A DNA stretch of 23,550 nt, from the IMG/VR virus record IMGVR_UViG_2718218360_000001. One strand, written 5' to 3'. Source of the DNA: a virus. Its lineage: Duplodnaviria > Heunggongvirae > Uroviricota > Caudoviricetes. Made by a program: the position numbers and the translations under genes. Under the pieces are notes generated by a model, which saw only the letters and a list, made by a program, of their open reading frames with translations, searched no databases and was not told the origin of the DNA. This document shows positions 5,469 to 6,767 of this stretch, piece after piece. Positions within the stretch are counted from its first letter, which is position 1; each line of letters begins with the position of its first letter.

Positions 5469-6767
5469 ATGACGATTGCGAAGGATAGTTCGACTGATGA
5501 AATCATTCATGGAAATGATCTCCGTGGAATGGATGATTTTTACATTAAGACAACGAGTTTTGAATGCCCATACGAGCCTTGTAAAATTAAAGCCACACCT
5601 TGTAGTTTTACTATGAAACATGTTAATCAATCATATTTCAGATATGGCGATAAACATAAGGATGGATGTGGTATTCATGATCCAAGATATAAAAACAATC
5701 ATACTTCAAATGACGAAAGAAAACATAATTCGCCACCTGCTCCGGTTATATCACTTTTAAAAATTGATGTGAAACCAAGAGGTGGTGTTAAAAATGCCAG
5801 AAATATTAAAAATGAAAATCACAAGGATGAAAAAAAAGGTAATGAACATCCTGTATCTTCATCAAGTATTAAGCCAGTCGTTGACTATTACATAAATAAT
5901 AGCAATCATAATGAACAGCTATCAATCCCTCCATATGGCACGCGATCTTATAAAGATACATTTCAACTTATTTTTTACAAAAACAACATACGTTATTACA
6001 AACCTGCTATTTATTATGGTGTAGCCCAGTCTAATATTCGTCTGCATGAAGATTCAGATAAACATTGTATTACTTTCCTCGCAAGGGATAAGAAAACCCA
6101 AAAACCATTTACGCTTGAAATTGATGTTTCTGACTGGAATAAAAGTCAGAAGGATGTGTTTTGGAAGGAATATGAAAAGCAAAGGAAGGAAGCTGATAGG
6201 TATTATAAGGGGCTTAAAGATAAAAGGAATGCTAAAAAATACTTGACGGTTTTCTTTTTTGGGATGCCGGATGAAAATGATAAGTTTCTATTTAAGACAA
6301 ACCACTTTAAATTAGTATATGTGGCTTTCTTGGGTAAATTTGAAAGCTCATATAATGATAGTAATTATTACATTGAAAATGATCTGTCTGTATCATCATT
6401 GAATGAACAACCCATTTCATTATCTGATATAGACCATAAAAATCATGAATATAATATTGAAACTTCATTAGATTTTAGTTCTCCTTTGCCAGAGCCAGAG
6501 CCAGAGCCAGAGCCAGAGCCAGAGCCAGAGCCAGAGCCAGAGCCAGAGCCAGAGCCAGAGCCAGAGCCAGAGCCAGAGCCAGAGCCAGAGCCAGAGCCAG
6601 AGCCAGAGCCAGAGCCAGAGCCAGAGCCAGAGCCAGAGCCAGAGCCAGAGCCAGAGCCAGAGCCAGAGCCAATAAGATCCTCTTTAAAGGAAAATACTGA
6701 GACTGTAGAAATGAACAGTAAAGTTTGGGGGAGGCTGAAAAAGATAATCACTTTCTTTAAAAAGTGA
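5469..6767 (+). CDS. Hypothetical 432-aa protein with Cys/His-rich N-terminus, (Pro-Glu)30 repeat and short basic C-terminal tail
   Basis: Long ORF in AT-rich DNA. N-terminus [15 protein letters not shown]...H...C. Residues encoded by 6489-6668 are a perfect PE dipeptide repeat, then [31 protein letters not shown]. No family recognised. Confidence 0.6.
6489..6668 (+). repeat. Perfect hexanucleotide microsatellite (CCAGAG)x30, in frame within the CDS
   Basis: 180 bp of uninterrupted CCAGAG units read directly; it is the source of the spurious minus-strand GS and AL repeat ORFs. Confidence 0.95.

Follow-up and report, generated by a model that had tools for sequence, protein, structure and literature searches.

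The gene examined here encodes a protein of 432 amino acids (aa) with a perfect (Pro-Glu)30 tract. It is located at positions 5469-6767 of a 23,550-nucleotide stretch of caudoviricete DNA (IMG/VR record IMGVR_UViG_2718218360_000001), referred to below as the window. An earlier note, made from the sequence alone, had described the product as an orphan. According to profile comparisons it is a long-form member of the PD-Lambda-4_B/Avs8B family and homologous to this family across its whole core (~290-300 aa). The Pro-Glu tract is the published locus O157-10/TR2/Vhec1 of MLVA (analysis of variable-number tandem repeats at multiple loci), a classic typing locus that the earlier note had missed. 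The repeat was already known, and the protein is a long-form, STAND-independent member of a known, uncharacterised family.

Family membership and identity of the Pro-Glu repeat

The open reading frame (ORF) contains no internal stop codon, and its start and stop are those of the RefSeq coding sequence (CDS) WP_071817984.1 ('hypothetical protein') in Escherichia coli O157:H7 EC4115. The orthologue of strain Sakai, ECs_3507, belongs to the stretch annotated there as prophage Sp17 and sits at its end nearest to ypjA. ECs_3507-type genes are real genes under purifying selection: across 11 orthologues and paralogues no stop was found and the ORFs are intact, the tail is kept beyond the repeat in all orthologues, and the ratio of nonsynonymous to synonymous substitution rates (dN/dS) of the core is 0.12-0.20 in seven comparisons, one of them saturated. 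A disrupted frame in relatives, named in the earlier note as an argument against its own proposal, was not encountered among these 11 genes.

The PADLOC model PD-Lambda-4_B (PDLC03992) matches residues 151-284 of the window protein (E = 1.9e-7, profile positions 161-294 of 303), and together with the matches of three relatives (Table 1) the whole profile is covered. An exhaustive profile search yielded 214 cluster representatives, most of them ~300 aa long and alignable end to end. A subset of 139 was used for PADLOC, for conservation analysis and for the AlphaFold2 alignment; 132 of these match PD-Lambda-4_B, with a best E value of 4.7e-189. Comparison of the O157 clade with 68 short-form members by hhalign gave 100% probability (E = 4.1e-41) over 281 columns, corresponding to residues 1-291. 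The O157 branch is only ~20% identical to the short-form members. The remote-homology search suggested in the earlier note was thus successful at the level of profiles, and the label 'orphan' had to be given up; a Foldseek search of the predicted structure against PDB and BFVD, on the other hand, gave nothing significant. A profile search of PDB sequences returned only noise. Pfam, NCBIfam and PHROGs hold no family for the protein and gave compositional matches on the Pro-Glu tract only (Trypan_PARP, DnaX, TonB). The competence protein CoiA was considered as a relative and rejected: the window protein has no CoiA_N match, 2 of the 139 relatives match CoiA_N (best E = 7e-5), and relative P0030 reaches 13.8 bits against a cut-off of 26.3, so that a resemblance was noted and membership was dropped. 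The central PD-(D/E)xK nuclease domain of CoiA had no Pfam match in any of the 139 members.

PD-lambda-4 has now been renamed Avs8 (bioRxiv 10.1101/2025.07.02.662641). In this anti-phage system of E. coli ECOR07 Avs8B is the accessory gene (Vassallo et al. 2022, PMC9519451; bioRxiv 10.1101/2025.07.02.662641), while Avs8A is a Mrr-nuclease STAND NTPase that senses major capsid proteins (bioRxiv 10.1101/2025.07.02.662641). The protein studied here shares with Avs8B the homology of the whole core, the C…C…H…C signature and the location in defence or mobile regions, but it lacks an adjacent Avs8A and carries a ~100-aa repeat linker and an amphipathic tail that are missing from the ~300-aa short form. 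Indeed, no gene for a STAND/Mrr-NTPase (Avs8A) is present among the window ORFs or within +/-9 kb or more in the EC4115 and Sakai annotation, and no Avs8A-type STAND NTPase was detected in 10 genomic contexts of family members. A canonical Avs8A-Avs8B operon was likewise absent from the sampled contexts; this pairing is known from the literature.

The Pro-Glu tract is encoded by perfect copies of a hexamer, which Tandem Repeats Finder (TRF) detected as an array of 30.7 units (Table 1) and which in frame yields exactly (PE)30 (residues 341-400, nucleotides 6489-6668). Both TR2 primers of Noller et al., listed together with the unit TGGCTC in PMC2246123, match the window without mismatch at 6184-6201 (plus strand) and 6788-6805 (minus strand) and flank the array. 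The published unit is the reverse complement of GAGCCA, the window unit being GCCAGA/GAGCCA, and TR2, Vhec1 and O157-10 are synonyms (PMC3768571). The locus goes back to Noller 2003, Lindstedt 2003 and Keys 2005, as cited in PMC2246123, PMC3768571 and PMC3777172, and in these typing papers O157-10 is handled as a marker within a hypothetical ORF. It is the most polymorphic and mutable variable-number tandem repeat (VNTR) of O157, accounted for 72% of all VNTR mutations in serial passage, mutates at a rate of 1.8e-3 per generation with multi-repeat jumps, and was left out of the PulseNet protocol as too variable (PMC3777172).

We found the locus in 313 of 5426 complete E. coli genomes, mostly of O157:H7 with a few of O121 and others. 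The match lengths correspond to about 8.7 to 63.7 hexamer copies, an about 7-fold range, and direct TRF counts gave 21.7 (O121), 24.7 (Sakai), 30.7 (window) and 40.7 (EC4115). With about 9 to 64 copies within E. coli and such a high mutability the tract is therefore no fixed-length ruler, and the proposal of the earlier note that a rigid rod holds a domain at a fixed distance does not stand. Since no reading frame of the hexamer contains a stop codon, the minus-strand ORFs across the repeat, which encode (GS)n and (LA)n, are artefactual. A second hexamer array of the window, TATTTC x8.8 at 9326-9378, is the MLVA locus TR1/Vhec4/O157-9.

In the orthologues core and tail are kept and the repeat differs (Table 1). 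The array of Pantoea dispersa S68 carries a single-base variant of the unit that has been propagated throughout. In a paralogue of E. coli C8 (WP_073533356.1, 61% identical) the same position of the linker is occupied by (AEV)14, the product of a 9-bp repeat, and the tail RKIWTGIRKLISFFKK comes next. This paralogue occurs in 249 of the 5426 genomes with spans corresponding to about 6-54 units, nearly all in 9-bp steps; in three genomes the spans are off the 9-bp register, with two CDS annotated beneath the match. A literature search for the AEV nonamer unit found no mention, and this hypervariable repeat of other E. coli lineages is apparently undescribed. Judged by these comparisons, one and the same linker site acquired (PE)n, (QE)n and (AEV)n, all in frame, by independent events.

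Table 1 Features of the window and of related loci (coordinates refer to the window unless a locus is named)
Feature	Position	Strand	Basis or description
Avs8B-like protein gene, 432 aa	5469..6767	+	ORF, RefSeq CDS, PADLOC, hhalign, dN/dS
N-terminal zinc-ribbon-like domain, small beta/alpha, residues 1-70	5469..5678	+	C33-x4-C38 ... H63-x3-C67; conservation; pLDDT 89-95
Basic loop (net +6), residues 72-130	5682..5858	+	Conserved NSPPAP-ISLL motif; pLDDT 53-62 except around residues 90-100
Small alpha/beta subdomain and predicted OB-fold, residues 134-300	5868..6368	+	b1-b2-b3, long helix 225-247, b4-b5
Hexamer VNTR GCCAGA x30.7 (TR2/Vhec1/O157-10)	6488..6671	+	TRF, primer match, copy-number spread
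Basic amphipathic C-terminal helix, residues 417-432	6717..6764	+	Conserved in orthologues and paralogue
Hairpin between convergent genes, 9-bp stem, A-run before, T-run after	6785..6809	.	Fold -18 kcal/mol, z = -2.5
Three tandem recombinase-module genes of carrier element	1..4163	+	Phage_integrase matches genes 1 and 2; NF041502 320 bits gene 2
137-aa small ORF (156 aa from first ATG at 4603)	4660..5073	+	Conserved neighbour in clade
Convergent BamE-domain lipoprotein gene	6843..7145	-	Pfam BamE E = 2.1e-6
Relative P0013			PD-Lambda-4_B E = 1.1e-5, profile 161-294
Relative P0010			PD-Lambda-4_B E = 2.6e-6, profile 222-296
Relative P0018			PD-Lambda-4_B E = 3.7e-5, profile 1-124
Orthologues of Enterobacter genomosp. 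O and Xenorhabdus bovienii			Repeat (PE)5
Orthologue of Pantoea sp. GD03673			(PE)10 then GPEP; 12.7 hexamer copies, 97% match
Orthologue of Erwinia sp.			(PE)9, codons CCTGAG
Orthologue of Pantoea ananatis			(PE)3
Orthologue of Pantoea dispersa S68 (94% identical)	Locus L010, 9001-10281		(QE)n, GCAAGA x27.3
Paralogue of E. coli C8, WP_073533356.1	Locus L005, 11085-11197; locus L022, 6442-7644		(AEV)n paralogue

Domain architecture, linker and tail

Structure prediction by AlphaFold2 with the 139-sequence alignment reached a predicted local distance difference test score (pLDDT) of 85.3 and a predicted template modelling score (pTM) of 0.81. A first model, built on 14 close sequences, scored poorly (pLDDT 50) and was set aside for this one. 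The core, rich in Lys (11%), Asn (8%) and Tyr (7%), is predicted to consist of a C2HC zinc ribbon and a probable oligonucleotide/oligosaccharide-binding (OB) fold. Residues C33, C38, H63 and C67 show no or almost no variation among the 139 distant relatives (consensus CxxC…HxxxC) and therefore indicate a zinc ribbon, in agreement with the zinc-ribbon-like Cys/His N-terminus suspected in the earlier note; Pfam matches to zinc ribbons and to CoiA_N were weak and restricted to few family members. Within the basic loop N87, S88, P89 and P90 are invariant in the close clade. An OB-fold is marked by a beta-barrel of five strands, the third and fourth of which are separated by a helix, and the order of elements predicted for the second half of the core (Table 1) may correspond to it. 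In the model, the combination of zinc ribbon and OB-like core suggests a binder of nucleic acid, possibly single-stranded.

Neither a transmembrane (TM) segment nor a signal peptide was detected, the maximum Kyte-Doolittle mean over 19 residues being 0.78. Because the conserved Cys/His zinc site implies it and TM segment and signal peptide are lacking, the protein is predicted to be cytoplasmic. When the protein and its small neighbour were scanned with Pfam, PADLOC and NCBIfam, no effector domain (nuclease, protease, pore, NADase) was recognised.

The linker of the O157 protein comprises residues 301-416, consists mostly of the VNTR and has a net charge of -38. It is followed by the last 16 residues with a net charge of +6 and a helical hydrophobic moment of 0.55. 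The 432-aa ORF with perfect (PE)30 tract and basic amphipathic tail, as the earlier note had it, was confirmed by these values and by TRF. Among the 139 family members 79 end within 30 aa beyond the core (short form), while 50, about a third of the family, are extended by more than 60 aa of low-complexity, acidic sequence rich in Pro, Ser, Thr and Gln. These long-form extensions end in a short basic amphipathic helix, e.g. …WIRRLFW or …LKNFFKN, and a strict test of charge and moment was passed by 38 of 53 members with an extension of more than 45 aa. A similar tail is kept behind family linkers of 50-230 aa, which is in line with the arrangement of core, spacer and C-terminal anchor or interaction peptide proposed in the earlier note. 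We infer that this acidic repeat acts as a tether which is either disordered or extended and tolerates changes in length. By calculation, the observed copy numbers would give (PE)n lengths of about 5-40 nm in a polyproline-II conformation.

Several known proteins resemble parts of this architecture. MinD and FtsA have C-terminal amphipathic helices that target the membrane, and the likeness lies in the short basic amphipathic helix at the extreme C-terminus, with a moment of 0.55 here and 0.57 for the FtsA peptide. However, there is no homology in the rest of the protein, and membrane binding is only putative in our case. SSB consists of an OB-fold core, an intrinsically disordered linker and a conserved C-terminal tip, and FtsZ of a core, a C-terminal linker and a C-terminal peptide. 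Here, too, a globular core with a predicted OB-fold is followed by a variable low-complexity linker and a short conserved C-terminal peptide. Nevertheless, sequence homology to SSB is absent, the tip is basic and amphipathic instead of the acidic DDDIPF of SSB, and a zinc ribbon is present in addition.

An alternating Pro-Glu tract is also found in TonB and in trypanosome procyclin, and the earlier note had drawn the analogy to TonB. The protein studied here lacks, however, the N-terminal TM anchor, the (KP)n half and the C-domain of TonB as well as a signal peptide and a glycosylphosphatidylinositol (GPI) signal. The NCBIfam TonB match (E = 0.057) covers the Pro-Glu tract only and no Pfam match to TonB_C was obtained, and TonB was rejected as a relative.

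Carrier element and genomic contexts

The gene is part of an element (window 1 to ~7195) that comprises a recombinase trio, a 132-aa ORF, a 137-aa ORF, the Avs8B-like gene and a convergent gene for a BamE-domain lipoprotein. A close-alignment search for related loci returned seven loci. Copies with about 95% identity to the element exist in Enterobacter, Pantoea and Xenorhabdus, and it also occurs in O121; this distribution indicates that the element is mobile and has spread among Enterobacterales. As the earlier note had assumed, the gene is indeed carried as cargo by an element with three recombinases, and this element has moved between genera. Its designation as 'defining cargo' was not borne out, since relatives occur in many other contexts without the trio. 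Its presence in Enterobacter, Pantoea and Xenorhabdus indicates that the trio element is separate from Sp17, within which it is annotated in Sakai.

The third recombinase gene is split in the window into 2518-3858 and 3759-4163 by a perfect 14-bp tandem duplication (AAATGGTATGGATG x2.1, 3738-3767), while it is intact (543 aa) in EC4115 and Sakai (ECs_3510). As a consequence of this split, the element is probably immobile in the source strain. The trio resembles the Gamma-Mobile-Trio (GMT) islands (bioRxiv 10.1101/2023.03.28.534373) in that three tandem recombination-module genes are followed by cargo and shared across genera. Membership, which would require orthologues of GmtY, GmtZ and GmtX in tandem, was rejected: the trio fails the models of GmtY and GmtX, the scores for GmtY being 22.3 and 20.9 bits where 340 is the cut-off, and NCBIfam holds no match for the third protein; on these profile scores the trio is a different family from GMT.

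The 137-aa ORF is located 5' of the gene in O157 and O121 and 3' in X. bovienii and P. ananatis (29% identity, E = 8e-15). It has no family match in Pfam, PADLOC or NCBIfam. The 132-aa ORF (4164-4562) has no family assignment either and shows a weak PADLOC match to AbiEi (E = 0.0026). The BamE-domain gene accompanies the Avs8B-like gene in O157 (EC4115), Enterobacter, Pantoea and X. bovienii and is truncated in O121; the genuine bamE of Sakai is ~17 kb off, near ssrA. The hairpin between the two convergent genes is a candidate bidirectional terminator. A scan for promoter and terminator consensus sequences performed no better than on shuffled sequences. Within the 395-bp leader 5' of the gene a 96-bp segment (5202-5297) with a 9-bp-stem palindrome (5242-5264) is missing in the otherwise collinear copy of Pantoea sp. 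GD03673; possible explanations are a small insertion or a hairpin with regulatory function.

Further downstream an IS3-family (IS629/IS1203-like) element of 1.3 kb (7675-8981) is inserted in an IS30 remnant and is absent from this site in EC4115 and Sakai. Lambdoid late-regulation genes (HNH endonuclease, NinG, Ser/Thr phosphatase, antiterminator Q) follow at 9492-12007 and beyond and belong to the degraded prophage Sp17/CP-933Y at ssrA.

Many of the family's contexts contain defence genes. QatABCD, CBASS and a NERD-UvrD helicase surround the E. coli C8 paralogue, and other members adjoin BrxR together with SNF2/DUF1156 genes, a giant SecA-DEAD helicase, HsdR and McrBC, or an AAA plus S8 protease and SMODS. 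One member is located at the integrase end of a P2-like prophage and another context is a TrwC/TraG conjugative region with ArdA. The recombinase trio is missing beside an 83%-identical copy in X. bovienii and beside the E. coli paralogue, and many relatives have no recombinase within 7 kb.

Proposed role and alternatives

On the basis of the predicted fold and of the defence or mobile-element neighbourhoods in 10 loci, we consider it somewhat probable that the product stays in the cytoplasm, binds nucleic acid as an accessory protein of defence islands and mobile elements, and is tethered by its tail via a length-tolerant linker. In this scheme the core of zinc ribbon and OB-like domain would bind nucleic acid, while the basic amphipathic helix would fix the protein either on the inner side of the cytoplasmic membrane or on a partner. 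Foreign DNA that enters or replicates might be sensed or sequestered by such a membrane-tethered protein, possibly in concert with the 137-aa neighbour. Slippage of the repeat would change the length of the tether only and would be tolerated because the family works with linkers of 0 to ~230 aa.

Some observations weigh against this view. The hydrophobic moment of the tail was equalled by 6.5% of shuffled sequences, so its amphipathicity is only moderately unusual, and the tail may just as well serve for docking to a protein. The one experimental study found Avs8B dispensable for defence against lambda and inactive alone (bioRxiv 10.1101/2025.07.02.662641), and for this reason the defence role of the family is unproven. 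A literature search on ECs3506-3510 returned nothing, including no expression data for ECs_3507. Moreover, the GC content is 30-35% across window 1 to ~6800 compared with roughly 50% in the downstream prophage genes, and it is plausible that this island of 31% GC is an H-NS-silenced region.

Instead of an accessory factor, the gene may encode an autonomous anti-phage or anti-plasmid defence protein that acts alone or with the 137-aa neighbour as protective cargo, the repeat length being a contingency mechanism. This would fit with the relatives beside Qat, CBASS, restriction-modification or McrBC, BrxR/DISARM-like genes, NERD-helicases and ArdA-bearing conjugative elements, with the small ORF as conserved partner, with the three different repeat types that arose at one linker site, and with the richness in defence cargo of the analogous recombinase-trio (GMT) islands (bioRxiv 10.1101/2023.03.28.534373). 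We nevertheless regard it as rather unlikely, as Avs8B alone gave no lambda defence (bioRxiv 10.1101/2025.07.02.662641), neither the protein nor its small neighbour has a recognisable effector domain, and slippage of hexamers or nonamers is in frame by construction, so that the variation needs no selection. Unlikely, too, is a housekeeping or regulatory factor of mobile elements, for example a DNA-binding accessory or regulator for excision, integration or maintenance, with no part in defence. Such a factor could have the predicted nucleic-acid-binding fold, could be encoded directly 3' of the trio as in O157, O121 and Pantoea, and could be expected near integrases and relaxases, where relatives are found. 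The trio is absent, however, beside the X. bovienii copy and the E. coli paralogue, the many relatives without a nearby recombinase do not fit, and a membrane-anchor-like tail would be unusual for a recombination directionality factor.

The homology to PD-Lambda-4_B over the whole core would also be expected of a true Avs8 accessory subunit whose partner, a STAND NTPase of the Avs8A type, is encoded at another place in the genome. This is very improbable in view of the missing STAND/Mrr-NTPase (in the window, within 9 kb in EC4115 and in the 10 contexts), the low identity of the O157 branch to the short form, and the linker and tail that the short form does not have. An envelope-spanning or secreted protein with a TonB/procyclin-like rod, or a decaying ORF with a neutral microsatellite, is largely refuted and hardly credible: the weak Pfam Trypan_PARP and NCBIfam TonB matches are confined to the Pro-Glu tract, and the extreme instability of the repeat is opposed by the low dN/dS values, the intact ORFs and a tail conserved past the repeat in all orthologues, while the lack of a signal peptide, TM segment and TonB_C domain and a zinc site that implies the cytoplasm speak against the envelope.

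The tethered accessory protein can be extended to a bolder proposal, namely that the long-form Avs8B-like proteins sense or sequester foreign (single-stranded) DNA from a tether at the membrane and that their linker length is under diversifying or contingency selection, with the independent VNTRs (PE)n, (QE)n and (AEV)n adjusting the reach of the DNA-binding head from the membrane or evading inhibitors encoded by phages or plasmids. This is speculative and in our opinion quite improbable. If true, the instability of O157-10 would have a function, similar to phase variation, in a protein of immunity or of a mobile element.

These findings have modest practical consequences, as the repeat was already known and the biological role is deduced indirectly. 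Protein-level context is now available for O157-10/TR2, the most unstable typing repeat of O157:H7: it encodes the linker that joins a core predicted to bind DNA to a C-terminal helix, a context that is absent from the typing papers (PMC2246123, PMC3768571, PMC3777172). A second hypervariable repeat, of 9 bp, was revealed at the same position in the paralogue of ~250 complete E. coli genomes of other lineages. For Avs8B a testable architecture emerges from the models, with a putative zinc ribbon and OB-like core and, optionally, an amphipathic tail behind an acidic linker. In most cases the family is found without the STAND partner from which it takes its name, which suggests that it forms a module of its own in defence islands and mobile elements.

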